This document shows, piece after piece, positions 3,302 through 48,391 of a stretch of DNA of 64,000 bases. The notes beneath the pieces are model-generated. The model had not been told where the DNA came from and ran no database searches. It was given only the letters and a program-made list of their open reading frames with translations. Source of the DNA: Escherichia phage Es2; sequence record OR515477.1. One strand, 5' to 3'. Position 1 is the first letter of the stretch. Every line of letters begins with the position of its first letter. The translations under genes and the position numbers were made by a program.

Positions 3302-4167
3302 TTATGAAAAAAGAATTTAATGTACATAAAACACTAGTAGTACCTGATGATGTTAACTTATTCTTTGTTGGTGATATTCATGGATGCAACGATTTACTAG
3401 AAGATGCACTACAATTAGCTGGATATAACGGCAAGAAAGATTGCGTTGTATGCGTGGGAGATTTAATTGATCGAGGCACGCAGAACCTACAAGTTTTAGC
3501 TAAATTCCTGTATAATCCACGCTTTATCAGTGTCCGTGGTAATCATGACCAATTTATGATTGTGGGAGATTGGGCTAACTGGATGTATAACGGTGGTATG
3601 TGGGCTATGAATGAACTAGATGCAGATACCATTAAAAATATTGCCGAAGACATGGCTGAAAAAATGCCAGTATTCCTAACTGTTAAACATCGCGGCAAGA
3701 AGTATGGTGTTGTTCATGGTGGTGTACCTTTTACATACAAAGAATGTGGTAATGAAGTAGAAACCCCAGTATGGGATAATCTTATTGCACAAGTAGAAGC
3801 AGCTAAGGAAGACCCACACGACCATCCTGGATACCATGTTGAGCCATACTTATGGGATCGAGATGTAATCCAAGAAATAGGTTTTCACTTAGCTAAAAAT
3901 GGTGAAGAACACTCATATTTCCAGCGTTATGCAGGGTTTAAAGAGAAATACATGGTAGAAGTACCTCCAGTTAATGGGGTAGACTTTGTATTTCATGGAC
4001 ATACCGGAGTACCTTACCCGATTTTATACCAGAACCGTGTTTATCTTGATACTGGCGGTGTTTTCAACGGGCAGTTGACGGTTGCGCAAGTTAATGATGA
4101 AACTGGGAAAATCACAACATTTACCACGCTTCGAGAAGATAGCTGTGGTGTACAGAGGATTCTTTAA
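3292..4167 (+). CDS. serine/threonine protein phosphatase (calcineurin-like metallophosphatase)
   Basis: 291 aa; GDIHG, GDLIDRG and GNHD metallophosphatase motifs. Confidence 0.7.
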   Translation: MGIIMKKEFNVHKTLVVPDDVNLFFVGDIHGCNDLLEDALQLAGYNGKKDCVVCVGDLIDRGTQNLQVLAKFLYNPRFISVRGNHDQFMIVGDWANWMYNGGMWAMNELDADTIKNIAEDMAEKMPVFLTVKHRGKKYGVVHGGVPFTYKECGNEVETPVWDNLIAQVEAAKEDPHDHPGYHVEPYLWDRDVIQEIGFHLAKNGEEHSYFQRYAGFKEKYMVEVPPVNGVDFVFHGHTGVPYPILYQNRVYLDTGGVFNGQLTVAQVNDETGKITTFTTLREDSCGVQRIL

Positions 4168-5721: not shown

Positions 5722-5973
5722 ATGGAAAACATGACTAAAAATGAAATGGCTAACGTTCTGGCAATTCTCCTCGACATGCAGGGTTTTGAGGGTCAGCTCA
5801 TGAAGATGTCTATTCCGGCAATGAAAAAGATGTATGATTCTCTGAATAAGAATGCTATGGCATTCAACCTTGCAAAACAGGAAGCACGTTTTGCTAAAGA
5901 GCATCAAGCGACTGCCGAACGTCGTGCAGCATCTTTTGAGCGTGAAGTTAAGCAACTGAAAGGTAAGAAATAA
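5722..5973 (+). CDS. hypothetical early protein
   Basis: Start moved to the ATG at 5722, which has RBS GAGAGGA 7 nt upstream; ORF track begins at 5704. Confidence 0.4.
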   Translation: MENMTKNEMANVLAILLDMQGFEGQLMKMSIPAMKKMYDSLNKNAMAFNLAKQEARFAKEHQATAERRAASFEREVKQLKGKK

Positions 5974-5995
5974 GGACTAAGGGAGTATATAATTA

Positions 5996-6277
5996 ATGTT
6001 GATTGAAATTCTTATTGGGTTACTAGTTCTTACTACCCTAGTAGCGATTGGCGGAGTTATTGGGATTGTGAATGCACGAAAAAGCATGGAAAATATGCTT
6101 ATTACTAATGATGGACTACACCACCGTTTGCTAGAGCAAGAGCAGGATATTGAATTAGCACAAAGACGCTCGGATATTCTTAAGGAAAAATTAAATAATA
6201 TAGAAGCAATAGTTGGGAATAATAAATTACCTGCTAAAGTAATGCGTACACAGATAATCACGGAGATTAAAAAATGA
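5996..6277 (+). CDS. small membrane-anchored coiled-coil protein
   Basis: 93 aa; N-terminal TM then charged helical region. Confidence 0.4.
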   Translation: MLIEILIGLLVLTTLVAIGGVIGIVNARKSMENMLITNDGLHHRLLEQEQDIELAQRRSDILKEKLNNIEAIVGNNKLPAKVMRTQIITEIKK

Positions 6278-9307: not shown

Positions 9308-9906
9308 TGTTCACACAACAACCTATTCAAGTAGTACCAGACCATGAACTGAACACATGGGATTATAGCTTTAAAGATTTAACTGCTACTGTACAATTCA
9401 AATCTATGAAGCTAACATTTGCACACACTGACCTTAGAGCATGTAAAGATCTTGAAGGTAAGCTAGAAGATGCTCGTAAGATTTTTGGCAAGGCTCGCAT
9501 CCCGGCTGATAACCTGATTAATGCACTGATCGATGCAGGATACAAACTCGTGAAGGCTGAGGTTAACCGTCCTAGTACTCCAGTGACTATTAGAGATCCG
9601 TGGCAATCAGGGCCAATCGCAATGCTAAATAAATCATCGGATTTGCACAATGTTCCATGTGGCGGTACGCTGTCGTCTAATCAATCCTATCGAGTTGGGG
9701 AAGATTATGGGCCTTCTATACAGTTGAAACATACTCAAGAAGCTCTTGAGTCTGACATGAAAAGCGTAGCACCGGGGAACTCTGGAGTTTCTAGGAATTC
9801 TGTCTATACTGTTCATTTAAACAATCCTGGTAATCATGGAAGTTTAGAGGATGCTATTATGGAGGCGTTGGGAGCTGTCATTAATGAAGATAAGAGAGGT
9901 AATTAA
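9307..9906 (+). CDS. hypothetical early protein
   Basis: 199 aa ORF; ATGA overlap with upstream gene. Confidence 0.45.
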   Translation: MFTQQPIQVVPDHELNTWDYSFKDLTATVQFKSMKLTFAHTDLRACKDLEGKLEDARKIFGKARIPADNLINALIDAGYKLVKAEVNRPSTPVTIRDPWQSGPIAMLNKSSDLHNVPCGGTLSSNQSYRVGEDYGPSIQLKHTQEALESDMKSVAPGNSGVSRNSVYTVHLNNPGNHGSLEDAIMEALGAVINEDKRGN

Positions 9907-10253
9907 TGATATTTGGTAAAACAAAAATAGCCCCTGCTGGGGAAAATTTAATTACTCTTAGCCTCTACTATAAGGATGAAAATGTAGAAATAGAAACATT
10001 AGAGTATGTTCTTATAAATACTAATAAGCCTAAAATAGGAGAGTTACTTGGTATAATCTCTAATATCTCTGATAGGGAAGATATTCCAAGTATAACACCA
10101 AAGAATATAGCTCACTTAGCACAACAATTAGGAATCTTGTGGTATAAAGTAGATCTTCCAGCTAAAGAAAGAACCAAAGGAACCTTTGCAGAGATCGCAA
10201 GAAAACCTAAGTCAGAAAAGAAAGAAACAGGGGAGCAAGCGTCTGATATATGA
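9906..10253 (+). CDS. hypothetical early protein
   Basis: 115 aa ORF. Confidence 0.4.
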   Translation: MIFGKTKIAPAGENLITLSLYYKDENVEIETLEYVLINTNKPKIGELLGIISNISDREDIPSITPKNIAHLAQQLGILWYKVDLPAKERTKGTFAEIARKPKSEKKETGEQASDI

Positions 10254-12099: not shown

Positions 12100-12310
12100 T
12101 AAATGAGAATAAAAATAAGAATCATTCTCATTTAGAAAGCGGAATGAGAATGATAATAATTCGCATTTAGAAAGCGAAATGAGAATCAATCTCATTTAAG
12201 AACGGAAACGAAAATTATTCAGGAAGTGAAACGATTCTCATTTAGAAAGTGGAATGATTCTCATTTAGAAAGTGGAATGCAAATGATAATGATTCGCATT
12301 TAAGAATGGA
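12100..12310. repeat. tandem array of ATTCTCATTTAGAAAG(Y)GGAATGA units with embedded inverted repeats
   Basis: About 5 direct repeat units plus AAATGAGAAT/ATTCTCATTT palindromic cores. Confidence 0.65.
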
Positions 12311-12333
12311 AGTGAGAAACACTGTTATTTAAG

Positions 12334-12415
12334 TTATCCACAGACTTATCAACAGCACGATTTGACTTGACAAAATTCTAGCCATTTTGAGGCGTTATCA
12401 ACAGACTTATCAACA
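12334..12415. promoter_or_regulatory. cluster of DnaA-box-like sites
   Basis: TTATCCACA (12334-12342) matches the DnaA box consensus TTATNCACA; TTATCAACA at 12346, 12395 and 12407. Confidence 0.45.
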
Positions 12416-12423
12416 GCTTATCC

Positions 12424-12443
12424 TACTGTATAAATATACAGTA
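12424..12443. promoter_or_regulatory. LexA (SOS) box-like palindrome
   Basis: TACTGTATAAATATACAGTA, CTGT-N8-ACAG, 18 of 20 match to TACTGTATATATATACAGTA. Confidence 0.45.
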
Positions 12444-12809: not shown

Positions 12810-13013
12810 TCATAAATCCTCCTCCGGTAGTCGGTGCGTGATTTTTTCCTCCTCTCCGTAGGAATCCACTAAATGCTGATAATAACCATCGTGATCATAA
12901 ATCACTTTATCATATTCGCCACGCTCGACCGCTTGTCGGTTTTCCGGCGTATCTGGCACGTAAAAAACATCAACCATTGTACTGATTTTGGTTACAACAA
13001 TTTTATTGCTCAT
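12810..13013 (-). CDS. hypothetical small acidic protein (67 aa)
   Basis: RBS GGAG upstream of ATG; inside higher-GC cassette. Confidence 0.4.
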   Translation of the reverse strand: MSNKIVVTKISTMVDVFYVPDTPENRQAVERGEYDKVIYDHDGYYQHLVDSYGEEEKITHRLPEEDL

Positions 13014-13038
13014 AATAACGCTCCGTTATTATATAATC

Positions 13039-13383
13039 TCATTGTGCCACCTTTCGAAACGCTGTTTCAATACTTTCCGCAGTTGACTGAATATACGCGC
13101 CTTTCATGATCAGGCGCTCAGTGCATACCTTACGGAAGATATTAATAAAATCATCTTCATTTTCTGCAATTAACGCTTCACCCATAACCTGAACGTCACA
13201 AGATGCAAAGGTCAAAAATTGAAACGCTAGTTCACGGGCAACGACCTCATTGATTTTATAATGCGCCTTGCCCTCATAAATATTAATAACGCCCTTATAT
13301 GTTGGGGAAAGCTGATTTAAATAATTTGCTAATAATGCTGGGCGGCAATTAGCAATAAAACGATTGCCTTCATAAATAACCAT
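13039..13383 (-). CDS. hypothetical protein (114 aa)
   Basis: Start set at the ATG with RBS GGGAGG 6 nt upstream (MVIYEGNRF); ORF track start is 13398. Confidence 0.4.
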   Translation of the reverse strand: MVIYEGNRFIANCRPALLANYLNQLSPTYKGVINIYEGKAHYKINEVVARELAFQFLTFASCDVQVMGEALIAENEDDFINIFRKVCTERLIMKGAYIQSTAESIETAFRKVAQ

Positions 13384-13510
13384 TTGACAGCCTCCCAATT
13401 AGATAGCCAGATAATAACATAAAGATCCCCAATGAAAGGGGGTCATTTTTAAATAGGGTGGCGGTAAAACCGCCAGCCATTGCAAGGATGATAACAATAA
13501 CGCTTTTCAT
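13367..13510 (-). CDS. small two-segment hydrophobic peptide (47 aa), not in ORF track
   Basis: MKSVIVIILAMAGGFTATLF...LSLGIFMLLSGYLIG; ATGA overlap with upstream stop. Confidence 0.3.
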
Positions 13511-13719
13511 AGTACCCCACGAAACGCAGCGTAAAAGGTGGCAAAATGTTTAACTGTTTCAGCTATCACGTTGCCGCGCTTGTCAAATTTCTTTTCTGTA
13601 ACACGAAAGGCATTCTTATTACGTGCTACATATTCAATTTTACAATCTTCCCGCTCGAACGTGTTAACATCCACCAGCTTAAAGCCTTTCGAACGTGCAA
13701 GAGAAACATTGCGGATCAT
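13507..13719 (-). CDS. hypothetical basic protein (70 aa)
   Basis: RBS AGGAGAA upstream of ATG. Confidence 0.4.
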   Translation of the reverse strand: MIRNVSLARSKGFKLVDVNTFEREDCKIEYVARNKNAFRVTEKKFDKRGNVIAETVKHFATFYAAFRGVL

Positions 13720-13721
13720 TT

Positions 13722-13871
13722 TTATTCTCCTTTACTAGTCATGCAGCCCAGCAGATAAGAAAATGCAGCGATACCCGCGCCAATAATAACCGCGTGAACA
13801 CCGAAAGCTATTGCAAAAAGGGATAAAATAGCGCCCAAGATACCTGCTAGAATAGCTCGAAAAATAACCAT
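13722..13871 (-). CDS. small two-segment hydrophobic peptide (49 aa), not in ORF track
   Basis: MVIFRAILAGILGAILSLFAIAFGVHAVIIGAGIAAFSYLLG; RBS AGGAGA 7 nt upstream. Confidence 0.3.
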   Translation of the reverse strand: MVIFRAILAGILGAILSLFAIAFGVHAVIIGAGIAAFSYLLGCMTSKGE

Positions 13872-13917
13872 TTTCATTCTCCTAGTTTGCGGGGCGAAAG
13901 TAACGCCCCGTTATTAC

Positions 13918-14158
13918 TTACATTAAAACAATTTTTGCCGCTTGTTTTTTAGTACAGTGTTCCGCTTTCAGGGTATCCAGCAAAAAGCCGGCCGTTTGCT
14001 GATCGATTTTATCGGCGTTGTATAGTTCTTGGATGGTGTTATAAGTTTTAGCAATGCCGAACTCCTGCACCATTTCATGAATGATGGCGCGATTAGATAC
14101 CCAGCCTTGCGCGGTGAACAGATGACTAGCAGAAGAATAAGCAACCATTTTAAACCTC
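13918..14158 (-). CDS. hypothetical protein (80 aa)
   Basis: Start set at the ATG with RBS GGAGG upstream (MVAYSSASHLF); ORF track start is 14181. Confidence 0.4.
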
Positions 14159-14266
14159 CAAATTTTTGGGAAAATTTTCAACCGTCCTCAAACGGTGTAA
14201 AGGCATTATAACAAAAAAGGTCGCCATAAAAGGCGACCTTTACAAAACTTTACATTAGATTATTTA

Positions 14267-15277
14267 TTACTCGTTTTCGGTGTTAGTGGTAAAAGTAGAA
14301 ATATCGATACCTTTTACCATTTCATCAATCATTTCAGCGATGTTAAAACTTTGCACCATTTCCAACATTGCCGCTTCCATAGCTGCCCCTGCTACCGCTT
14401 TCGCTTTCTGGTTGCTTGGGGCATACTGGTCAACCGCTACGCTCAGCAGGTTGGCAATTACTACTCGACCGATAGGCGTATCAATATAACCTTTAATCAT
14501 GAACGGTGCTTTTTTAGCCGCTACTTTCGTAATTTGAGTCAGTGCAATTTTACCCGCTTCCAGTTTTGCAGCGTTTACAACGGCGGATTTATTAGCGGCA
14601 ACGATGTTAGCAATCTTGGTCATGGTATTTTTTCCTTTATTTTCAGTGATTTGAGTATTAACGCTTTGAGTGTTAGAATTTACAGCATGGTTTTCTACGC
14701 TGTCAATAATCTGATCTTCATCTTTCCAGAAAGAAAAACCAGCGCTTTCTATATCCCCATCATAAATATACGGGTATAGCTCCCGTGGTAACAAAAAATT
14801 ACCGTCGCCATCAAAAGCCATTATACCGGTATATTGAGATCCGTCGTTATCCGGCTTATACCATCCAGCGGGTAAATACTTCCAGATAACATCTAAAAAT
14901 CCCTCAATGCTAGAAAGTCCATTTATCAGATCAAGCCCAATAAGCTCAAAACCATTTATATTAAATGATTGACGGCCTGAATTGCTATGATACGCAACAA
15001 TAGTATTGCCCTGCGCAACAATAAAATCGGTATCCGGCCCCGCTCCCCTGCCCGTAAAGATATGGCAATCCCGATTATGTAAAACTAGCGTTGCCCCTTG
15101 CTTATATAAGGGTAGAAAACTATCCATATCATAGGCGTCATATTCATCAAAAAAGTTTTGATGAATAGTTTCAACCTTGTTAATAAAATGTTTAATGCTG
15201 GTTGACTTGCTACCGTCCAGCAGGTTACGCAATGCACCTTTTAAGACGGTTGCGTTATCTGGTTTATAAAGCCTCAT
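14267..15277 (-). CDS. hypothetical protein (336 aa), first gene of the inverted-repeat-flanked cassette
   Basis: Strong RBS GAGGAGG 7 nt upstream; Gly/Asp-rich N-terminal half and Ala/Lys-rich helical C-terminal half; no recognised catalytic motif. Confidence 0.5.
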   Translation of the reverse strand: MRLYKPDNATVLKGALRNLLDGSKSTSIKHFINKVETIHQNFFDEYDAYDMDSFLPLYKQGATLVLHNRDCHIFTGRGAGPDTDFIVAQGNTIVAYHSNSGRQSFNINGFELIGLDLINGLSSIEGFLDVIWKYLPAGWYKPDNDGSQYTGIMAFDGDGNFLLPRELYPYIYDGDIESAGFSFWKDEDQIIDSVENHAVNSNTQSVNTQITENKGKNTMTKIANIVAANKSAVVNAAKLEAGKIALTQITKVAAKKAPFMIKGYIDTPIGRVVIANLLSVAVDQYAPSNQKAKAVAGAAMEAAMLEMVQSFNIAEMIDEMVKGIDISTFTTNTENE

Positions 15278-15541
15278 TTGTTCGGCCTCCTCGTTAATCG
15301 GTGAGTGAATGATAAAGGTATTTTCTTTCTAGGGGCAAATATTATTTTACCTTTTTATTTTCTTTGCCTAACTCCTAGTTTTATGCTAATCGCGCAGCGG
15401 TACAGTAAAGAGCAAAACACGGCGAAGCCACCAGGGCGACGGGTGAAGGCTTTACTTTAATATTACCCCACTGCATTTAGCTCGTTAGAAAGCGATTTAG
15501 GCCGCTTAAAATTGATTGCAGTTGTTAACACTACCTTTTTA

Positions 15542-15561
15542 CCCTGTATATTTATACAGTA
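15542..15561. promoter_or_regulatory. LexA (SOS) box-like palindrome
   Basis: CTGTATATTTATACAG, CTGT-N8-ACAG. Confidence 0.45.
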
Positions 15562-15569
15562 GGATAACC

Positions 15570-15651
15570 TGTGGATAAGTCTGTGTAAAAGTCCTTATAT
15601 CGCCGCCTATCATGTCAAGTTATTTTACAAAATGTATAAGTCTGTGGATAA
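15570..15651. promoter_or_regulatory. DnaA-box-like sites
   Basis: TGTGGATAA at 15570-15578 and 15643-15651, reverse complement of TTATCCACA. Confidence 0.45.
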
Positions 15652-15841
15652 CTTAAATAATAGTGTTTCTCACTAACTAATTTATGCAGTTATTATATCG
15701 TAAAATATAGTTAGTTGGCTAATAGGATTTTAAAGTGATTATGAGTCCGCTAATTAAACCTGAAAAACTCATTAGCTAGTCTGCTAATCATTTTGATATA
15801 ATATAATAGAGATTAAATTAATAACATAAGGAAACAATTAG

Positions 15842-16360
15842 ATGCCTAAATATAAACATATAGATTATGACCTTTTTAATAGTTACTTTTATTATGATGA
15901 AACATCGTTATCATTTTTACGCTGGCGAGAAGATCATGCCATCGCTGGTGGTTTAAATGGTAATTATTGGCAAGTTGAATTATTAGATAAAGGACAATTC
16001 AAAGTACATAGAATTATTTTTTGTATAATGAATGGTGGTATAGATAGCGAGCTAATGATTGATCATATTGATCGTAACCCCCGTAATAATAACATTTGGA
16101 ATCTTCGCGCGGTTGATAGTTCCCAGAATAACTATAATAAGACTCCTAGTGAGTATGAAAACTATAAGCGTGCTAATGGTATCCCTAGAAACATTTACGT
16201 TAATAAAATTCGCCCCCGTGATAGTTTCGGGCGTGATTATTTAACTGCTCAAATTAAGAATCCTATTACTAACAAGCGTGTTAGTAAGTCTGGTTATGAT
16301 TTACAAGAGTTATTATTATGGCTTGAAGCTAAAAAAGCTGAATTCGGAATTGTCAATTAA
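15842..16360 (+). CDS. HNH homing endonuclease (HNH_3-type)
   Basis: IDHIDRNPRNNNIWNLR motif; sits in an AT-rich islet within the higher-GC region. Confidence 0.6.
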   Translation: MPKYKHIDYDLFNSYFYYDETSLSFLRWREDHAIAGGLNGNYWQVELLDKGQFKVHRIIFCIMNGGIDSELMIDHIDRNPRNNNIWNLRAVDSSQNNYNKTPSEYENYKRANGIPRNIYVNKIRPRDSFGRDYLTAQIKNPITNKRVSKSGYDLQELLLWLEAKKAEFGIVN

Positions 16361-16384
16361 TTTATTTTATAAATTAACTCGTTT

Positions 16385-16416
16385 AGTCTTGATTTTTAAA
16401 AGTCAAGACCTTTTTC
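16385..16416 (+). terminator. rho-independent terminator
   Basis: AGTCTTGA-loop-TCAAGAC followed by CTTTTT. Confidence 0.5.
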
Positions 16417-16585
16417 AACTATTTTTCAATTTTGCGGTTGTTAAATATTTGTTAAACCGAAAATAAGCCGCCTAAAACGCCCCAGAACGCGATGAAAGTT
16501 TTAGTCATGCCATTGCATTGCCTACCCTCGTTTATCGCTACCACGAGCTTTTTAGATTTTGTCAAGTAGGGGAAAGCAAATATAA

Positions 16586-16876
16586 ATGAAAAAATTACTT
16601 GCCTATCTGCTATGTTTTGTGGTATTCACGCGCCCGTTTCTTTTAATTTTAGTGTGCCGCGCCCTAGTCGCCGCACGCCGTCCGGTGAATCGTGTCTTTA
16701 CGTTTCTTTACAAAAATAAGGTTGCGCCATTTTCGGGAATCCCCTATTATTTATCACGTAGGGCGGCAATGACGAACTACACGGCGGGAAGTTTACCGCC
16801 ACGCTCTTTAAAAATTGGGTATATCTTAAAGCCTATCGGCGGTAAACTTATTCATTATAAGGAATCGACGATATGA
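16586..16876 (+). CDS. hypothetical protein (96 aa)
   Basis: ORF with weak RBS and unusual Arg-rich hydrophobic composition. Confidence 0.25.
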   Translation: MKKLLAYLLCFVVFTRPFLLILVCRALVAARRPVNRVFTFLYKNKVAPFSGIPYYLSRRAAMTNYTAGSLPPRSLKIGYILKPIGGKLIHYKESTI

Positions 16877-17076
16877 AACAAACGCTTTTGATAACTGGTA
16901 AACCAGCTAAAAAATTAGATGGTACTACTAAAAAATTGTTGACAGTAGCGCAAAGATCCATAAGATATAGATTCACGCAGTACAAGAAAGGCCGCCAGCA
17001 AGGTTTAGAAATGATCTGGCGAAATATTATGATTGACCTGAAAGAAAATCATAAAAAACTGCAAAAAATTGTTTGA
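16873..17076 (+). CDS. hypothetical basic protein (67 aa)
   Basis: RBS AAGGA upstream. Confidence 0.3.
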   Translation: MKQTLLITGKPAKKLDGTTKKLLTVAQRSIRYRFTQYKKGRQQGLEMIWRNIMIDLKENHKKLQKIV

Positions 17077-17306
17077 CACCCTAGCCGATAGGCTTTAAGA
17101 TGTACCCAGTTCGATGAGAGCGATAACTTGATACAATTTGACGGTCGGTGCTTACCATAATGCATCCCGCCCCCTAACTGGGATATAGCGGCCTGAGTGG
17201 AGTTCTTTAAATTGATTATAATGGCGAGCGGATTGTTACTTATTACCTGCTACTATTTTCTAGTAGGTAATGCGAAACAATCCCCTAAATAACTGGAGTT
17301 TATACT

Positions 17307-17558
17307 ATGCAAAACGTTACTAATGCGCCGAAAATTGGTCAATCCGTTTTTATCCCTTTCGTTACCAAAACGGATGAATTAACCGGAAAAGCCGAACGTA
17401 TTAAAGGTGCGGCGCTTATGCCGTTCGATACAATCGACGCGGTATACGCTGAAAATGAACGCAGTAACAACGGCAAGCCGATTTATAACGTTCGCGTTAA
17501 ATCCGGCGACGTTGTAAAGGTTGTTCAACGCAACGAAAAATGGGAAGCTGTACTGTAA
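17307..17558 (+). CDS. pre-early-type hypothetical protein (83 aa)
   Basis: Conserved TCCCCTAAAT leader plus GGAG SD; followed by perfect hairpin at 17574-17599. Confidence 0.45.
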   Translation: MQNVTNAPKIGQSVFIPFVTKTDELTGKAERIKGAALMPFDTIDAVYAENERSNNGKPIYNVRVKSGDVVKVVQRNEKWEAVL

Positions 17559-17656
17559 TCTAGTGTTAACTTTATATTCCCCTGAAATATGGGGAATATA
17601 ACGATTAACATTAGTTAATCATAATCCCTTAAATTAAACTAATAGGAGTTTATATC

Positions 17657-18064
17657 ATGACTAACGCAAAAACCGCAAAATTCGCATGGAATGAAGAAAA
17701 CACCCAAAAAGCTGTTACCATGTACCAGCAGTTAATCAACGAAAACGGTTTAGATTTCGCAAATAGTGACGGGCTGAAAGAGATTGCAAAAGCAGTAGGC
17801 GCGGCTTCTCCCGTATCCGTTCGCTCAAAATTGACCAGTGCAAAAGCCTACCAGAAAAGCGATAAGCCGCGTAAAGTTGGCGGCGGCAGTTCTGTACGCA
17901 AAGCGCATTATGTGCGTGTTATTGCTAAACATGCCATTGATTCCGGCATTATCAAAGACGCTGACGATCTGGCATCACTGGAAAGTGCAAAACTTGAAAC
18001 GCTGGACGCGGTAGCGCAATTGCTAGGCGTTGCCGATGAAGTGAAACAAGCCGCAGGCGAATAA
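17657..18064 (+). CDS. pre-early-type hypothetical protein (135 aa)
   Basis: AATCCCTTAAAT leader plus GGAG SD. Confidence 0.45.
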   Translation: MTNAKTAKFAWNEENTQKAVTMYQQLINENGLDFANSDGLKEIAKAVGAASPVSVRSKLTSAKAYQKSDKPRKVGGGSSVRKAHYVRVIAKHAIDSGIIKDADDLASLESAKLETLDAVAQLLGVADEVKQAAGE

Positions 18065-18153
18065 TAGTTATACATTGCCCTTCCTAGTGGGAGGGCAATA
18101 ATATAACTGTTTAGCGATAGTTATTTTCTTCCCTTAAATCAGGAGTTTTAAAA

Positions 18154-18351
18154 ATGATTTTCTTTCCTACTGAATCATTAATTTTAGGCTTGTTTATTAT
18201 GGCGGCCTCATTATTGTTCGCTTATTTTCAAAATGATTTAGATTCATATTATTTTAAACGTAAATCTAAGTTAGCAAAGCGTTTAGGTCTGATTTGTTTT
18301 ATTGCCGCCGTTGCTTGTGGTGTTAGTTCTAGCCTTATGCCTTTAAATTAA
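18154..18351 (+). CDS. small membrane protein (65 aa)
   Basis: TCCCTTAAAT leader; two hydrophobic segments. Confidence 0.4.
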   Translation: MIFFPTESLILGLFIMAASLLFAYFQNDLDSYYFKRKSKLAKRLGLICFIAAVACGVSSSLMPLN

Positions 18352-18447
18352 TGTTGCAAATTATAACGCCTATTATTCAAGGCGTTATATTTGGCAATAT
18401 TTGCCAATAACAAACGTTTTTTAATCCCTTTAATGGAGTTTATTACT

Positions 18448-20112
18448 ATGATTATTTCCGCAGAAAAACAAACCGTTATCCTGAAAATGGCCGCTGACTT
18501 TAATTTCTATGGTAAACGTCTGCGCGCCACTAAACTGGAGGTCTGCGACGATATATCAAAAGCGGTCTACGATACAACAAAACACTCGACCGCCATTTGT
18601 GATTGGCTGGAAGCAAATAAACCAGTTAAACCAAAAGCTGCAAAAGTAGCAAAAGCTATTAAAAACGATGAGCGCCCCGAAGCGGCTGGGATCGTTTCTA
18701 GCACGGTTGAACAGTGGGAAGTAAAACAAGGCAAACGCTTTATTATTACGTCGATTCAGAATAATACTTTCCCGCATAAAAACTTTTTGGCCTCGCTTGA
18801 ACAGTATGCTAAATACATCGGCGCTGATTTGCTTGTTTCTAAGTATATTTATAATAAAAACGGCTTCCAAAATGGTGAAGGTGCGGATGGAATCAAATAT
18901 GATTCCGCGTTCGATAAGTATATTTGCAGCAAAAACGTGTTTTTAAACAACCGCCGTTTTGCTTTCATGGCTGAAATTAACGTTTTGCCTACCGCAGATT
19001 ATCCGCTTTCTGGATTCGCTGAAACTGCAACGGCGCTTAATCTTGAAGGTCTGGCAATTGGTCACGCTAAAATCACCGCCGAAAGCGTGCCAGCTTTAAA
19101 AGGTGAAGTAGTACGCCGCATGTACTCAACCGGAACGGCAACGCTAAAAAACTACATTCAGCAGAAAGCAGGGCAAAAAGCGGAAGCGCTGCATAACTTC
19201 GGTGCGCTGATTGTTGAGTTCGACGAAGACGGTGAGTTTTTTGTACGCCAGCTTGAAACAATGGACGAAAGCGGGGTGTTTTATGATCTGAATGTTTGCG
19301 CTACTCCCGCAGGATGCTATGAAACATCGGGGCATGTTTTAGGTTTACAATATGGCGACATCCACGCAGAAAAATTAGATGATGATTGTGCCGTTGCGTC
19401 ATGGGCTGGCGAAAATAGCTTGCTTGATATTCTTAAACCAAAATATCAGTTTATCCATGACGTTCACGATTTTACATCTCGCAATCATCATAATCGTGCG
19501 TCCGGTGTATTCCTAGCGAAACAGTACGCCGCCGGACGTGATAAAGTTCTGGATGATCTTATCGATACGGGGCGCGTGCTGGAATCAATGGAACGTGATT
19601 TTAGTCAAACGATCATTGTTGAATCGAATCACGATTTGGCGCTATCCCGTTGGCTGGATGATCGTAATGCTAACATTAAAGACGATCCAGCAAACGCCGA
19701 ACTATATCACCGCCTGAATGCTGCAATTTACGCGGCAATCGGTGAACACGACGAAACGTTTAACGTGTTAGATTATGCGCTGCGCAAGGTTGCAGGTTGC
19801 GAGTTTAACGCCATTTTCCTAACAACTGACCAATCATTTAAAATTGCAGGCATCGAGTGTGGCGTACACGGTCACAACGGCATTAACGGAAGCCGTGGCA
19901 ATCCTAAACAGTTTAAGAAATTGGGCAAACTGAACACGGGGCATACGCATACGGCAAGCATTTACGGCGGGGTATACACCGCTGGCGTGGCTGGTAGTCT
20001 GGACATGGGTTACAACGTTGGCGCGTCAAGCTGGACGCAAACGCATTTAATTACCTATGCAAACGGTCAGCGCACTTTGATTGACTTTAAAAACGGTAAA
20101 TTCTTTGCGTAA
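18448..20112 (+). CDS. A1: A1-like pre-early protein with calcineurin-like metallophosphatase motifs
   Basis: 554 aa from the ATG at 18448 (T5 A1 about 556 aa, from memory); GDIH, GHNG and GHTH motifs; AATCCCTTTAAT leader. Confidence 0.55.
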   Translation: MIISAEKQTVILKMAADFNFYGKRLRATKLEVCDDISKAVYDTTKHSTAICDWLEANKPVKPKAAKVAKAIKNDERPEAAGIVSSTVEQWEVKQGKRFIITSIQNNTFPHKNFLASLEQYAKYIGADLLVSKYIYNKNGFQNGEGADGIKYDSAFDKYICSKNVFLNNRRFAFMAEINVLPTADYPLSGFAETATALNLEGLAIGHAKITAESVPALKGEVVRRMYSTGTATLKNYIQQKAGQKAEALHNFGALIVEFDEDGEFFVRQLETMDESGVFYDLNVCATPAGCYETSGHVLGLQYGDIHAEKLDDDCAVASWAGENSLLDILKPKYQFIHDVHDFTSRNHHNRASGVFLAKQYAAGRDKVLDDLIDTGRVLESMERDFSQTIIVESNHDLALSRWLDDRNANIKDDPANAELYHRLNAAIYAAIGEHDETFNVLDYALRKVAGCEFNAIFLTTDQSFKIAGIECGVHGHNGINGSRGNPKQFKKLGKLNTGHTHTASIYGGVYTAGVAGSLDMGYNVGASSWTQTHLITYANGQRTLIDFKNGKFFA

Positions 20113-34486: not shown

Positions 34487-35386
34487 ATGTACTACTCTCT
34501 AATGCGAGAGTCAAAAGTTATAGTTGAGTATGATGGTAGGGCATTTCATTTTGATGCCCTATCAAACTATGATGTACAAACCTCCTACGAGGAATTCAAG
34601 ACTCTTCGTAGGACTGTTCATCGTAGAACTAACTATGCAGACTCTATTATAAATGCTCAAACCCCTTCTTCTATCTCTCTAGCAGTAAATTTTAGTAATA
34701 CTCTTACTGAAGCTAACTTCTTTGAATGGTTAGGTTTTGATAGAAAAGGTAATACTTTCTTACTCCCATTATATAGTAATAATATTGAACCTATTATGTT
34801 TAATATCTATATAGTAAATAAAGATAATAACTGTGTATATTTTGAAAACTGCTATGTATCTACAGTAGATTTTTCTTTAGATAAAAATATACCAATTCTT
34901 AATGTTGGTATTGAATCGGGAAAATTTTCCGAAGTATCTACGTATAGGGAAGCAGCTTCTATTATACAGGGTGAAGTAATGTCTTACAGCCCAGTAATAG
35001 CTTCTACTAATGGCAGCATCTTACCAGGTCTTATTTCTGCCTCTTTATCTTTCCAACAGCAGTGCTCCTGGAGAGAGGATAAGAGTGTTTTTGATATAAA
35101 TAAAATTTATAATAATAAAAGAGCTTATGTAACTGAAATGAATGCTTCGGCAACCATTTCTCTGTACTACTTAAAACGTTTTGCAGGAGACATGGTTTAC
35201 AATATCGAACCGGAGATAGATGTACCATTAAATATAAGAAATAATAATATTTCTATAGATTTTCCTTCAGCACGTATTACAAAACGCCTAGATTTCTCAG
35301 ATGTGTATAGAGTTGAGTGGGATATTATACCTACTGCTTCTTCAGACCCAGTGAGAATAGATTTCTTTGGAGAAATTAAAAAATGA
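34487..35386 (+). CDS. tail protein, p140-like
   Basis: 299 aa; position after tail tube gene. Confidence 0.4.
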   Translation: MYYSLMRESKVIVEYDGRAFHFDALSNYDVQTSYEEFKTLRRTVHRRTNYADSIINAQTPSSISLAVNFSNTLTEANFFEWLGFDRKGNTFLLPLYSNNIEPIMFNIYIVNKDNNCVYFENCYVSTVDFSLDKNIPILNVGIESGKFSEVSTYREAASIIQGEVMSYSPVIASTNGSILPGLISASLSFQQQCSWREDKSVFDINKIYNNKRAYVTEMNASATISLYYLKRFAGDMVYNIEPEIDVPLNIRNNNISIDFPSARITKRLDFSDVYRVEWDIIPTASSDPVRIDFFGEIKK

Positions 35387-35787
35387 TTAATTTAAAAGAT
35401 ATTACTCTCGATACTCGTACTATTACTCTTTCCTACCCGGGTATGCCGAACTTTAAACTAGAACTTAACTATATGTCTCGTGCTACCTCTAAACGTGTTA
35501 TTTCTTCTGCTAAACGCGATGAATGGGTTAATGGTACTTTGATTCAGGTACAGGATGATGATAAGTTCATTGAAGCCTTTGTTGACGCAGCTATTAAAGG
35601 TTGGACCGGTTTGACTGTAGGTGATGTTGAAAAACTGATGCTGATTGAAACAGATGCTGATCCTGCTACTGAAGTTCCTTTTAGCCGCGATAATGCTGTA
35701 ATGCTCATGCAGAACTCTGCTGCGTTTGATTCTTGGATCAACCAGACAGTGTTCCACTTAGATACTTTTCGTAGCCCAAAAGCGTAA
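35383..35787 (+). CDS. putative tail assembly chaperone
   Basis: 134 aa acidic protein upstream of the tape measure gene. Confidence 0.3.
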   Translation: MINLKDITLDTRTITLSYPGMPNFKLELNYMSRATSKRVISSAKRDEWVNGTLIQVQDDDKFIEAFVDAAIKGWTGLTVGDVEKLMLIETDADPATEVPFSRDNAVMLMQNSAAFDSWINQTVFHLDTFRSPKA

Positions 35788-46037: not shown

Positions 46038-48391
46038 TGGCAGTAACTACTAAAATTATCGTACAGCAGATATTAAATATTGATGATACTAAAGCTACTG
46101 CTAGTAAATTTCCTAGATATACAGTAACTCTAGGTAATTCTATTAGCTCTATTACTGCAAGTGAGTTAGTATCTTCTATTGAGGCAGCAGCTAAGTCTGC
46201 TGCAGCTGCAAAAGATTCTGAGATAGCGGCTAAAACTTCGGAGCTTAACGCTAAGAACTCTGAACAGGAAGCTGCTATTTCTGCTGGAGCTTCTGAAGCT
46301 TCTGCTACTCAGTCTGCTACCTCTGCTACTCAGTCTGCCACTTCTGCTACTAAATCTGCAGAATCAGCTGCAGCTGCAAAAACCTCTGAAACCAATGCTA
46401 AGTCTAGTGAAACAAAAGCTAAAACCTCCGAGACTAATGCAAAAACTAGTGAAACTAATGCAAAGTCTAGTGAAATCAAAGCTAAGGCCTCCGAGACTAA
46501 TGCTAAGGCTAGTGAAACTAATGCTGCTGCTTCGGCTGCAGCGGCAAAACTTAGTGAGGATAATGCAAAAATCAGTGAGACTAATGCTGCTGCATCCGCT
46601 GCGGATTCCAGTGGTTTTAGGAATGAGGCGGAAACATTCTCTACACAAGCTGCCACATCAGCTTCTGCTGCAAAAACCTCCGAAACAAAGGCTAAAACTA
46701 GCGAAACTAATGCAAAAGCTAGTGAGACTAAAGCCAAAGCTAGTGAGACTAACGCAGCTAGTTCCGCAACTTCAGCTAGTCAGTCAGTAACTACTATTCA
46801 AGGCTTAAAATCAGATGTTGAGCAGCTAAAATCAGATACTCAGGCCATTAAAAACAGTGCTGTAACAGAGACAACAGCTATAAAGGCAGATGTTGCGCAG
46901 TTAAAAACGGATACACAAGGTATTAAAGATAGCGCGGTAGCTGAGACAACAACTTTAAAAAACCAAGCTGCAACTTCTGCAACTAATGCTGCTAATTCTG
47001 CAGCAGAAGCGGGGAGACAGGCTACTGCTGCTGCTAATAGTACTAATACTGCTAAAACTGAAGCCGATCGTTCAAAAACTGAGGCTGATAGATCAGAAGC
47101 TGCTGCCAATGCTACTCCTGACATTCAGCCTCTTCCAGATGTATGGATACCGTTCAACGATTCACTGGATATGATTACGGGCTTTTCTCCATCTTATAAA
47201 AAGATTGTTATTGGTGACGATGAAATTACGATGCCGGGCGACAAGATTGTTAAATTTAATCGAGCGTCTACTGCAACGTATGTTAATAAGTCTGGCGCGT
47301 TCACAATTGCTGAAATCGATGAACCAAGATTTGAACGTGAAGGTTTGCTTATTGAGGGGCAGAGAACTAATTATCTATTAAACTCAAATAAACCGCAGTC
47401 GTGGCCTATACACTCATCACTAAATAAAGAGTTTAGTAGCGACAATTTTAACTTCAACTATGCAACAGTATCGCCGACTAATGGTATTATAGGGACAACA
47501 GGTGGCTACATGATAATCAATGTTGCCACCAGAGATAGGTTTAATCTACCTAACGGTGAAAGTTTTACTTTTTCTTGTCGTGCAAAAGGTAGCAAGTGCA
47601 GACTCAGAGCGCGTGTAGCTTACGCTGGTGATGGTGGTGCTGATGTTTTTTCGGCAGACGCATACCTTGACTTTGATTCAGTATCGGCTTCAGTAAGCGG
47701 TCAAACCAATCTTATTAGATCAAAAGTTGAACAGCGTGGAGAATGGCTTTATTTTGAAGTGACATACACGGCGGACGCTGATCGCAACGCCATAAACTGT
47801 GCTTTCTTTTTTGCTAACAAGATTAGAGAAGAACCATTTTATGAAGATTCAACGATTACGCTAGCTACATCACAAATTGAGCTTGGCTCCTGCGCATCAT
47901 CGTTTATTGTATCAGGTGGCACTCCAACCACAAGAGCAAGTGACGTTGTGACCATTCCAGCACAAAACAACCTTGCTATTAGGCCATTTACTGTTCTTTG
48001 CGAAGTAAACAAAAATTGGACTACTCCACCAAATGTAGCCCCACGTATATTTGATGTCGGTGGGCACCAGATTGATGATAATTATTTGTCACTTGGGTTT
48101 GTATCAACAGGAAAGCTGGCTGCAAATGTCGGAATGATTCAACCGCAGATTGCTGTTGATGGGGATAAGTTTGTTGTTGGTTTAAGGGCTAAATCAGACT
48201 TATCTGTTAATGCTATATTCAATGGCAATTATACAACTAACCCTAATGGTAAAGAGTTCGGAATCACGGCAACATCGTACCGATTCGGAGGGCAAACTGC
48301 GGCGGGAACTCGTCACTTATTTGGCCATATCCGCAATTTAAGAATCTGGTTTAAAGAGCTAACTGATAGACAAATGAAGGAGTATGTATGA
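46037..48391 (+). CDS. L-shaped tail fibre protein A-like, with tandem repeats and C-terminal LamG/lectin-like domain
   Basis: 784 aa; 7-aa KTSETNA-type repeats; C-terminal GTRHLFGHIRNLRIWFKELTDRQMKEY resembles a concanavalin-A-like lectin domain end motif. Confidence 0.5.
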   Translation: MAVTTKIIVQQILNIDDTKATASKFPRYTVTLGNSISSITASELVSSIEAAAKSAAAAKDSEIAAKTSELNAKNSEQEAAISAGASEASATQSATSATQSATSATKSAESAAAAKTSETNAKSSETKAKTSETNAKTSETNAKSSEIKAKASETNAKASETNAAASAAAAKLSEDNAKISETNAAASAADSSGFRNEAETFSTQAATSASAAKTSETKAKTSETNAKASETKAKASETNAASSATSASQSVTTIQGLKSDVEQLKSDTQAIKNSAVTETTAIKADVAQLKTDTQGIKDSAVAETTTLKNQAATSATNAANSAAEAGRQATAAANSTNTAKTEADRSKTEADRSEAAANATPDIQPLPDVWIPFNDSLDMITGFSPSYKKIVIGDDEITMPGDKIVKFNRASTATYVNKSGAFTIAEIDEPRFEREGLLIEGQRTNYLLNSNKPQSWPIHSSLNKEFSSDNFNFNYATVSPTNGIIGTTGGYMIINVATRDRFNLPNGESFTFSCRAKGSKCRLRARVAYAGDGGADVFSADAYLDFDSVSASVSGQTNLIRSKVEQRGEWLYFEVTYTADADRNAINCAFFFANKIREEPFYEDSTITLATSQIELGSCASSFIVSGGTPTTRASDVVTIPAQNNLAIRPFTVLCEVNKNWTTPPNVAPRIFDVGGHQIDDNYLSLGFVSTGKLAANVGMIQPQIAVDGDKFVVGLRAKSDLSVNAIFNGNYTTNPNGKEFGITATSYRFGGQTAAGTRHLFGHIRNLRIWFKELTDRQMKEYV
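46300..46770 (+). repeat. in-frame 15-nt and 21-nt tandem codon repeats within tail fibre gene
   Basis: TCTGCTACTCAGTCTGCY units then about 12 AAAACCTCTGAAACYAATGCW-like 21-mers in two blocks. Confidence 0.6.

Follow-up and report, generated by a model that had tools for sequence, protein, structure and literature searches.

A probable free-standing HNH homing endonuclease cassette at the hegG locus of a T5-like phage

The genome paper of phage BF23 ascribed local variation between T5-like genomes largely to genes for homing endonucleases, for instance the F-Tfl genes, and the T5 HNH enzymes F-TflI, -II and -IV have been described as site-specific endonucleases (Akulenko 2004). Another T5 gene of this kind, hegG (T5.010, annotated as "putative H-N-H endonuclease P-TflVII"), occupies the locus between T5.011 and 009/hdi. 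Davison (10.1101/866236) described the insertion at this place, which is missing from most T5-like phages and in T5 splits the regions R1 and R2, a single continuous region in most phages. The hegG gene is dispensable and occurs in less than 15% of Demerecviridae, and HegG is toxic when produced by itself, with supercompaction of the nucleoid but no bulk degradation of DNA, A1 alone being necessary and sufficient for the degradation of host DNA (10.64898/2026.04.02.716235).

Here we examine the corresponding locus in a 64,000-nucleotide stretch of Escherichia phage Es2 (OR515477.1; hereafter the window). A megablast search with positions 14000-18400 returned 533 phage records, nearly all of them T5-like (Tequintavirus and relatives), with top matches at about 92-93% identity and in reversed orientation relative to the T5 record; by these matches the window belongs to a T5-like phage (Tequintavirus). 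According to the T5 annotation the HNH locus falls in the left terminal repeat, that is, in the first-step-transfer (pre-early) DNA, where it is flanked by an arm of the iss-related inverted repeat on one side and by gene 009/hdi on the other, and the genes beyond the T5.011 homologue follow in the order hegG, 009, 008/hdi, 007, A2, A1 (Table 1). We conclude that the window most likely carries, at the hegG locus in the pre-early terminal repeat, a free-standing HNH homing endonuclease cassette. Both gene and insertion are already known, since copies 92-97% identical are present in GenBank and the insertion has been described (10.1101/866236). The type of enzyme and the insertion are unsurprising and of little significance beyond annotation, for which we recommend the label HNH homing endonuclease at the hegG locus, FFH1-type allele.

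The window gene shares with T5 hegG its locus, its length of 172 aa and its promoter region. The promoter and 5' UTR are 92-95% identical in nucleotides between the two, and the 3' end with the terminator 93-94%, whereas the coding core is only 64-74% identical in nucleotides and 56% in amino acids. On these identities the window gene is a mosaic, an allele lineage of its own whose ends are T5-like, and it is best called, going by the same alignments, an allelic lineage at the hegG locus of the same kind as the FFH1 gene (FFH1/NR01-type). Like F-TflI, -II and -IV of T5 and the Seg and Mob endonucleases of T4, it is a free-standing gene of sporadic occurrence between conserved phage genes. The three F-Tfl genes differ in lying in the T5 tRNA gene region and in that site-specific activity has been demonstrated for their products, whereas the window's protein is a predicted endonuclease. 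The T4 Seg enzymes belong to the GIY-YIG type.

The cassette and its predicted product

The gene stands alone in the intergenic spacer between DUF7566 and 009/hdi, with predicted expression signals of its own. By comparison with relatives the cassette extends over 15675-16468, slightly wider than the limits of 15700-16420 drawn in the first-pass annotation. In blastn its AT-rich leader has 75-78% similarity to that stretch of the HNH-less allele which resembles a promoter, and a promoter scan finds a weak sigma-70-like match (TTCTCA, 18 nt, TATTAT; 15667-15696) spanning into it. Further downstream, 15759-15833 shows homology with the promoter that the T5 record has upstream of hegG (T5 record 5938-6012) and contains an extended -10 element, from which we infer a putative promoter belonging to the cassette, with a predicted start near 15809. 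At the other end, the segment common to HNH-less alleles provides the final codons and stop of the HNH ORF, and it is here that homology with the empty allele restarts. A terminator-like hairpin of 10 pairs (16386-16409) begins 26 nt past the stop codon and is followed by CTTTTTC, the T-run reaching to about 16415; its predicted fold has an energy of -10.6 kcal/mol (z = -3.0 against shuffles). A search of 15000-17300 against Rfam at E <= 1 gave no known RNA in the cassette or leader, a match to DapZ being at chance level (23 bits, where the gathering score is 56).

Table 1. Features of the hegG locus and its neighbourhood (window coordinates unless another record is named)
Feature	Position	Strand	Basis and remarks
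T5.011 homologue (DUF7566)	14267-15277	-	Pfam and T5 annotation
Right arm of the iss-related inverted repeat (T5 "IRC-spacer-IRD")	15544-15674	unstranded	Repeat search; outside the cassette, abutting it
AT-rich leader of cassette	15675-15754	+	blastn HSPs 15657/15678-15754 against HNH-less loci
HNH-specific segment, 597 bp	15755-16351	+	Breakpoints common to 10 HNH-less loci
Extended -10 element TGATATAAT, predicted cassette promoter	15794-15802	+	Sequence inspection
Shine-Dalgarno-like AAGGA	15830-15834	+	Sequence inspection; 7 nt upstream of the ATG at 15842
HNH_3 endonuclease gene, 172 aa (predicted)	15842-16360	+	Pfam, PHROG, I-HmuI alignment, AlphaFold/Foldseek
Short segment common to HNH-less alleles, 87-94% identical	16352-16383	+	blastn HSPs in all HNH-less loci
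Right variable segment with terminator-like hairpin	16384-16468	+	Terminator scan
008/hdi homologue (DUF7416)	16873-17076		
A2 homologue	17657-18064		
A1 homologue	18391-20112		
HNH-less element	L002 (VEc33) 3727-4073		Equivalents in L009, L012-L014, L016, L019, L027, L031 and L032

The first-pass annotation had described gene and flanks as an islet of about 30% GC within a higher-GC block of 45-50%, and had read the islet as the signature of an insertion. The islet itself is real: GC is 29.9% over 15675-16440 and 30.2% over 15700-16420, set against a mean of 38.7% (sd 2.9) for windows of islet size across the 64 kb, of which only 0.16% are as low, and the HNH ORF has a GC3 of 24% against 32-43% in its neighbours. 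Its surroundings, in contrast, are at about 40% GC (39.9% for 13000-15674, 40.0% for 16441-19000 and 39.7% for the 10-22 kb block), with only short stretches reaching 45-50%. Nor is composition a guide to the insertion, since the HNH-less allele, at 26.5-28.6% GC, is as AT-rich as the cassette, so that the low GC belongs to the locus and is not diagnostic; with the insertion the islet only grows, from about 330 bp to some 800 bp. The islet needs no further explanation. The only other equally AT-rich stretch in the window, at 34641-35407, lies inside a 299-aa ORF by structural genes and is not another endonuclease.

The identification of the gene as HNH_3-type, made in the first-pass annotation from the letters alone, is borne out by several lines of evidence. 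Residues 54-97 match Pfam HNH_3 (PF13392) over profile positions 2-45 of 46 (E = 1.4e-12; 47.5 bits against a cut-off of 24.8), the protein matches PHROG 99, "HNH endonuclease" (E = 6.6e-31), and 106 viral HNH or homing endonuclease models match at E <= 1e-3; NCBIfam gave no match for either the window's HNH protein or T5 HegG. The nearest solved relative by sequence is I-HmuI (PDB 1U3E; E = 0.008), the HNH homing nickase of Bacillus phage SPO1, which is also the best Foldseek match in the PDB (probability 0.99, 152 columns). D74, H75, N87 and N96 are invariant across an alignment of 12 homologues and align residue for residue with the DH...N...N of I-HmuI, giving a catalytic His (the general base) with an Asp before it, besides one structural and one metal-binding Asn. 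From this alignment and the predicted fold, the protein is a predicted HNH_3 / His-Me finger endonuclease with intact active-site residues.

The AlphaFold model, which is of moderate quality (pLDDT 79) and was built from the 12-sequence alignment, predicts an N-terminal beta-rich module (1-54), a beta-beta-alpha-metal core with strands at 72-75 and 88-91 followed by a helix at 93-99, a low-confidence (disordered) linker at 97-112 and a C-terminal domain of three strands and a helix (118-167). Beyond the positions of the catalytic residues, the protein has in common with I-HmuI the elongated multi-module layout and a similar size (172 aa against 174 aa), at an overall identity of 18%. The crystal structure of I-HmuI ends in a helix-turn-helix domain, which differs from the three strands and helix of our model, and the I-HmuI gene lies in a group I intron while the window gene is free-standing. 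The terminal modules searched in isolation had zero Pfam matches even at E <= 10, and in particular no AP2 domain was found in residues 112-172, C-terminal to the HNH, at that threshold. We accordingly do not class the protein as an HNH-AP2 homing endonuclease, the predicted three strands and helix being only reminiscent of the AP2 fold. A T5 nicking enzyme or a terminase-associated HNH protein is ruled out because the gene is dispensable and missing from most T5-like phages. No HNH paralogues turned up in the rest of the 64-kb window, either with tblastn or with a profile made from the homologue alignment; a weak match of 24% at 9688-10038 is not an HNH ORF.

Alleles of the locus among related phages

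We gathered 30 loci from 22 genomes via the neighbouring DUF7566 gene and added the records of T5, VEc33 and NG_A1. Window-type alleles, 92-97% identical in amino acids, are found in NG_A1, NBSal005, FFH1, fp01, NBEco002, NR01 and one metagenomic virus. Besides these and T5 HegG, a third HNH lineage (53-55% aa identity) occurs in LVR16A, VSe12 and SH9, and a fourth, short one (115 aa, 47%) in HdH2. The first-pass annotation had proposed looking for an empty site in relatives, and many T5-like phages do indeed lack the HNH gene at exactly this position, with breakpoints in common; rather than being present in all relatives at matching GC content, an HNH gene at the locus is absent from 10 of the 22 distinct related genomes. 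Among GenBank phages, 184 records contain the empty allele, 120 of them near full length, while 54 contain the window's 597-bp HNH segment, 25 of them near full length.

In the HNH-less genomes, blastn homology with the window stops exactly at 15674, returns for 16352-16383 and then resumes from 16469. Because these breakpoints are shared, we delimit the strictly HNH-specific segment as the 597 bp of 15755-16351, in place of which the HNH-less relatives have about 95 bp of unrelated sequence. A global alignment of cassette and empty allele with cheap gaps produced noise within the cassette, and so the blastn breakpoints were used. The empty allele is not a mere gap but a conserved non-coding element of 315-378 bp in which the number of TAGTTATTATTTCT units varies, the AGTCTGCTAAT motif occurs twice and a promoter-like stretch matches window 15678-15754 with 75-78% similarity; if the element is transcribed from anything, it would be from this shared promoter-like sequence. 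In most HNH-less phages it also has, in the place of the window's terminator hairpin, a perfect DnaA-box palindrome, AGTTATCCACT...AGTGGATAACT.

That the gene is followed by a terminator of its own, as the first-pass annotation had it, is true of the hairpin but not of its exclusiveness. The right variable segment is 87-94% identical in all HNH-bearing loci and at most 48% identical in most HNH-less ones, and the cassette-type hairpin variant accompanies every first-site HNH, but it is also present in L013 and L021, which have no HNH at the site. The terminator is therefore linked to the cassette without being exclusive to it.

The cassette was also said to lie next to the right arm of an inverted repeat, as it does, the end of the arm at 15674 coinciding exactly with the left breakpoint and thus with the start of the cassette. 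A possible contribution to local rearrangement had been suggested as well, and this holds in part: the TAGTTATTATTTCT repeats of the empty allele and its DnaA-box palindrome are missing from the HNH-bearing genomes, which indicates that remodelling to the left and right goes with the insertion, but the inverted-repeat arm has remained intact.

The spacer has a second site, at about 16650-16697 of the window. L021 and L023 are empty at the first site and carry a short HNH gene at the second, that of L021 (3084-3425, - strand) encoding 113 aa without the C-terminal domain and that of L023 being the equivalent, 47%-identical HNH; both second-site cassettes carry the same promoter module (78-79% identity). 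On this count the spacer is a hot spot, with at least four HNH lineages and two sites. Among the first-site lineages, the promoter/5' module is 74-100% identical and the module of 3' end and terminator 84-100%, as against 48-77% for the core, and such conserved end modules around a divergent core point to recombination between cassettes.

Homing and its alternatives

The proposal of a free-standing, homing-type insertion gains support from this presence/absence pattern, from incongruence with the flanks and from one near-isogenic pair of genomes. The hot spot speaks for it as well, as does selection on the window-type allele, whose eight full-length copies are intact with low dN/dS. The cassette is 89-99% identical in nucleotides across genomes whose DUF7566 N-terminal halves are, in binned identities, 95%, 66-77% and 54-56% identical to that of the window, and each of these backbone groups has HNH-less members too. 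By these comparisons the distribution of the HNH gene is incongruent with the flanking backbone, part of which could come from recombination of the mosaic DUF7566 gene and not from movement of the HNH gene.

The pair consists of VSe12, whose HNH (third lineage, type C) belongs to a sister lineage with 55% aa identity to the window's protein, and VEc33, which has none. A divergent tract of about 1 kb is centred on the HNH locus and takes in some 400 bp of the left flank and some 130 bp of the right one; outside it the two are 99-100% identical, over about 2 kb on the left side and about 3.3 kb on the right. The identity on the left is interrupted by an indel of about 440 bp near the DUF7566 stop codon (L028 against L006). 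This tract has the footprint expected of a recent conversion with co-conversion of the flanks, and the same alignment could equally reflect loss, by conversion to the empty allele. For the window-type allele no near-isogenic pair with and without the gene was found among 25 loci, the best being 93-95% identical in the flanks. With at least four lineages at a hot spot and one near-isogenic pair, the locus offers a natural system for testing whether and where T5-family HNH genes home or cut.

In the reading that we favour, host RNA polymerase would transcribe the cassette from the extended -10 promoter, as homology with the T5 promoter suggests, once the first 8% of the genome has entered the cell. 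DNA would be bound by the N- and C-terminal modules of the protein and nicked or cut at the predicted beta-beta-alpha-metal site (D74/H75/N96). The population pattern suggests that in a mixed infection the cut would fall in a related phage's HNH-less allele, at or close to the segment of about 95 bp that the insertion replaces, and that recombinational repair from the HNH-bearing genome would then copy the cassette together with some flanking sequence. A genome bearing the cassette would presumably be immune because the target segment is gone.

We consider it unlikely that the gene is instead a domesticated pre-early nuclease, which would damage or nick the DNA of the host or of a defence element during takeover and be retained because it is useful, not because it homes. 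Its place among the pre-early host-takeover genes and its own predicted promoter would suit such a role, as would the toxicity of T5 HegG alone and a nucleoid supercompaction typical of DNA damage (10.64898/2026.04.02.716235). Selection on the protein would suit it too: the eight full-length copies of the window-type allele are all intact, with pairwise dN/dS of 0.05-0.18, and on these low values the protein is under purifying selection. However, HegG expression left chromosomal DNA undegraded, A1 alone suffices for host DNA degradation, and hegG is both dispensable and confined to a minority of the Demerecviridae (10.64898/2026.04.02.716235). Further, most close relatives have the empty allele, and unrelated-looking HNH lineages, some without the C-terminal domain, alternate at the spot; sporadic presence and alternating lineages fit selfish elements better than a conserved function.

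A more elaborate version of the homing cassette, which we regard as doubtful, would make the spacer a dedicated landing pad in which HNH cores are swapped between fixed 5' and 3' modules, with a possible attack on rival phages that interferes with two-step transfer in addition to homing. As the enzyme would be produced from the DNA that is injected first, its target in co-infecting T5-like phages may be this same region, next to their injection-stop (DnaA-box) repeats.

It is quite improbable that the cassette is an immobile relic, that is, that the HNH gene was ancestral at the locus and has been lost repeatedly, the AT-rich islet reflecting a non-coding repeat region. The equal AT-richness of the HNH-less allele would be in keeping with this, as would the retention of the cassette-type terminator in the HNH-less L013 and L021, as in a deletion derivative, and the continuity of R1 and R2 in most phages (10.1101/866236). 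However, the HNH-less allele holds the segment of about 95 bp and the repeats that the HNH-bearing allele lacks, which makes the two alleles alternative segments and not a deletion series. The same allele is, moreover, more than 90% identical on backbones that are merely 54-77% identical, all copies are intact and under purifying selection, and the site is occupied by different HNH lineages.

Least probable of all, and very much so, is a weapon of competition, in which the nuclease, by analogy with the free-standing T4 endonuclease SegB, for which marker exclusion is established (PMC2330249), would cut a co-infecting T5-like phage near the injection-stop repeats without necessarily copying the cassette, so that the rival's markers would be excluded or its second-step DNA transfer blocked; pre-early expression is to be expected, and the presumed target lies in the rival's first-step-transfer DNA next to IRC-spacer-IRD and the DnaA-box repeats, but the VSe12/VEc33 conversion tract is what ordinary homing with co-conversion would produce, and the idea overlaps largely with homing itself.

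Neighbouring repeats and genes

The inverted repeat that the cassette abuts is about 131 nt long, with arms at 12311-12441 and 15544-15674 that are 77-97% complementary, and it brackets the leftward pre-early operon. The right arm contains two consensus DnaA boxes, TTATCCACA, on the - strand (15570-15578 and 15643-15651) and the left arm one on the + strand (12334-12342), so that three of the four DnaA boxes observed in the 64-kb window, where 0.59 are expected, lie inside the arms. Davison (10.1101/866236) names the T5 arms IRD'-spacer-IRC' (in the injection-stop region) and IRC-spacer-IRD, describes their DnaA boxes and proposes the arms as part of the injection-stop signal. Just left of the left arm, in the injection-stop / Repeat Region 3 area, we also observed a pair of 91-nt direct repeats (12110-12333; 80% identical, 133 nt apart).

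The DUF7566 gene on the - strand is itself a mosaic among relatives. Its C-terminal third is 87-96% identical everywhere, and its N-terminal two thirds fall into discrete groups at about 95%, 85%, 66-77% and 51-56% identity, a grouping that suggests module exchange. T5 gene 011 has been reported to be toxic. In VEc33 and NG_A1 an extra ORF of 495 bp, missing in VSe12, T5 and the window, lies between the T5.011 and T5.012 homologues.

On the other side of the cassette, a 96-aa ORF (16586-16876, + strand) spans the position of T5 gene 009, which has 35 aa in T5 and 57 aa in L018; conservation is limited to the C-terminal part of this ORF, so that the long frame is probably partly spurious. In the area of the second HNH site the window is 11 bases longer than its relatives, at about 16678-16688. 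The hdi (DUF7416) gene is bracketed by a 39-nt inverted repeat (16802-16840 and 17084-17122; 82% complementary), the right copy of which overlaps a strong promoter-like site (TTGACA, 17 nt, TAAGAT; 17073-17101), and this repeat region matches a stretch of T5 with the annotated pre-early promoters P-H22 and P-D/E20. Far from the locus, a long run of degenerate 21-nt (7-codon) repeats at 46241-47064 lies within a coding region, probably a tail-fibre gene.
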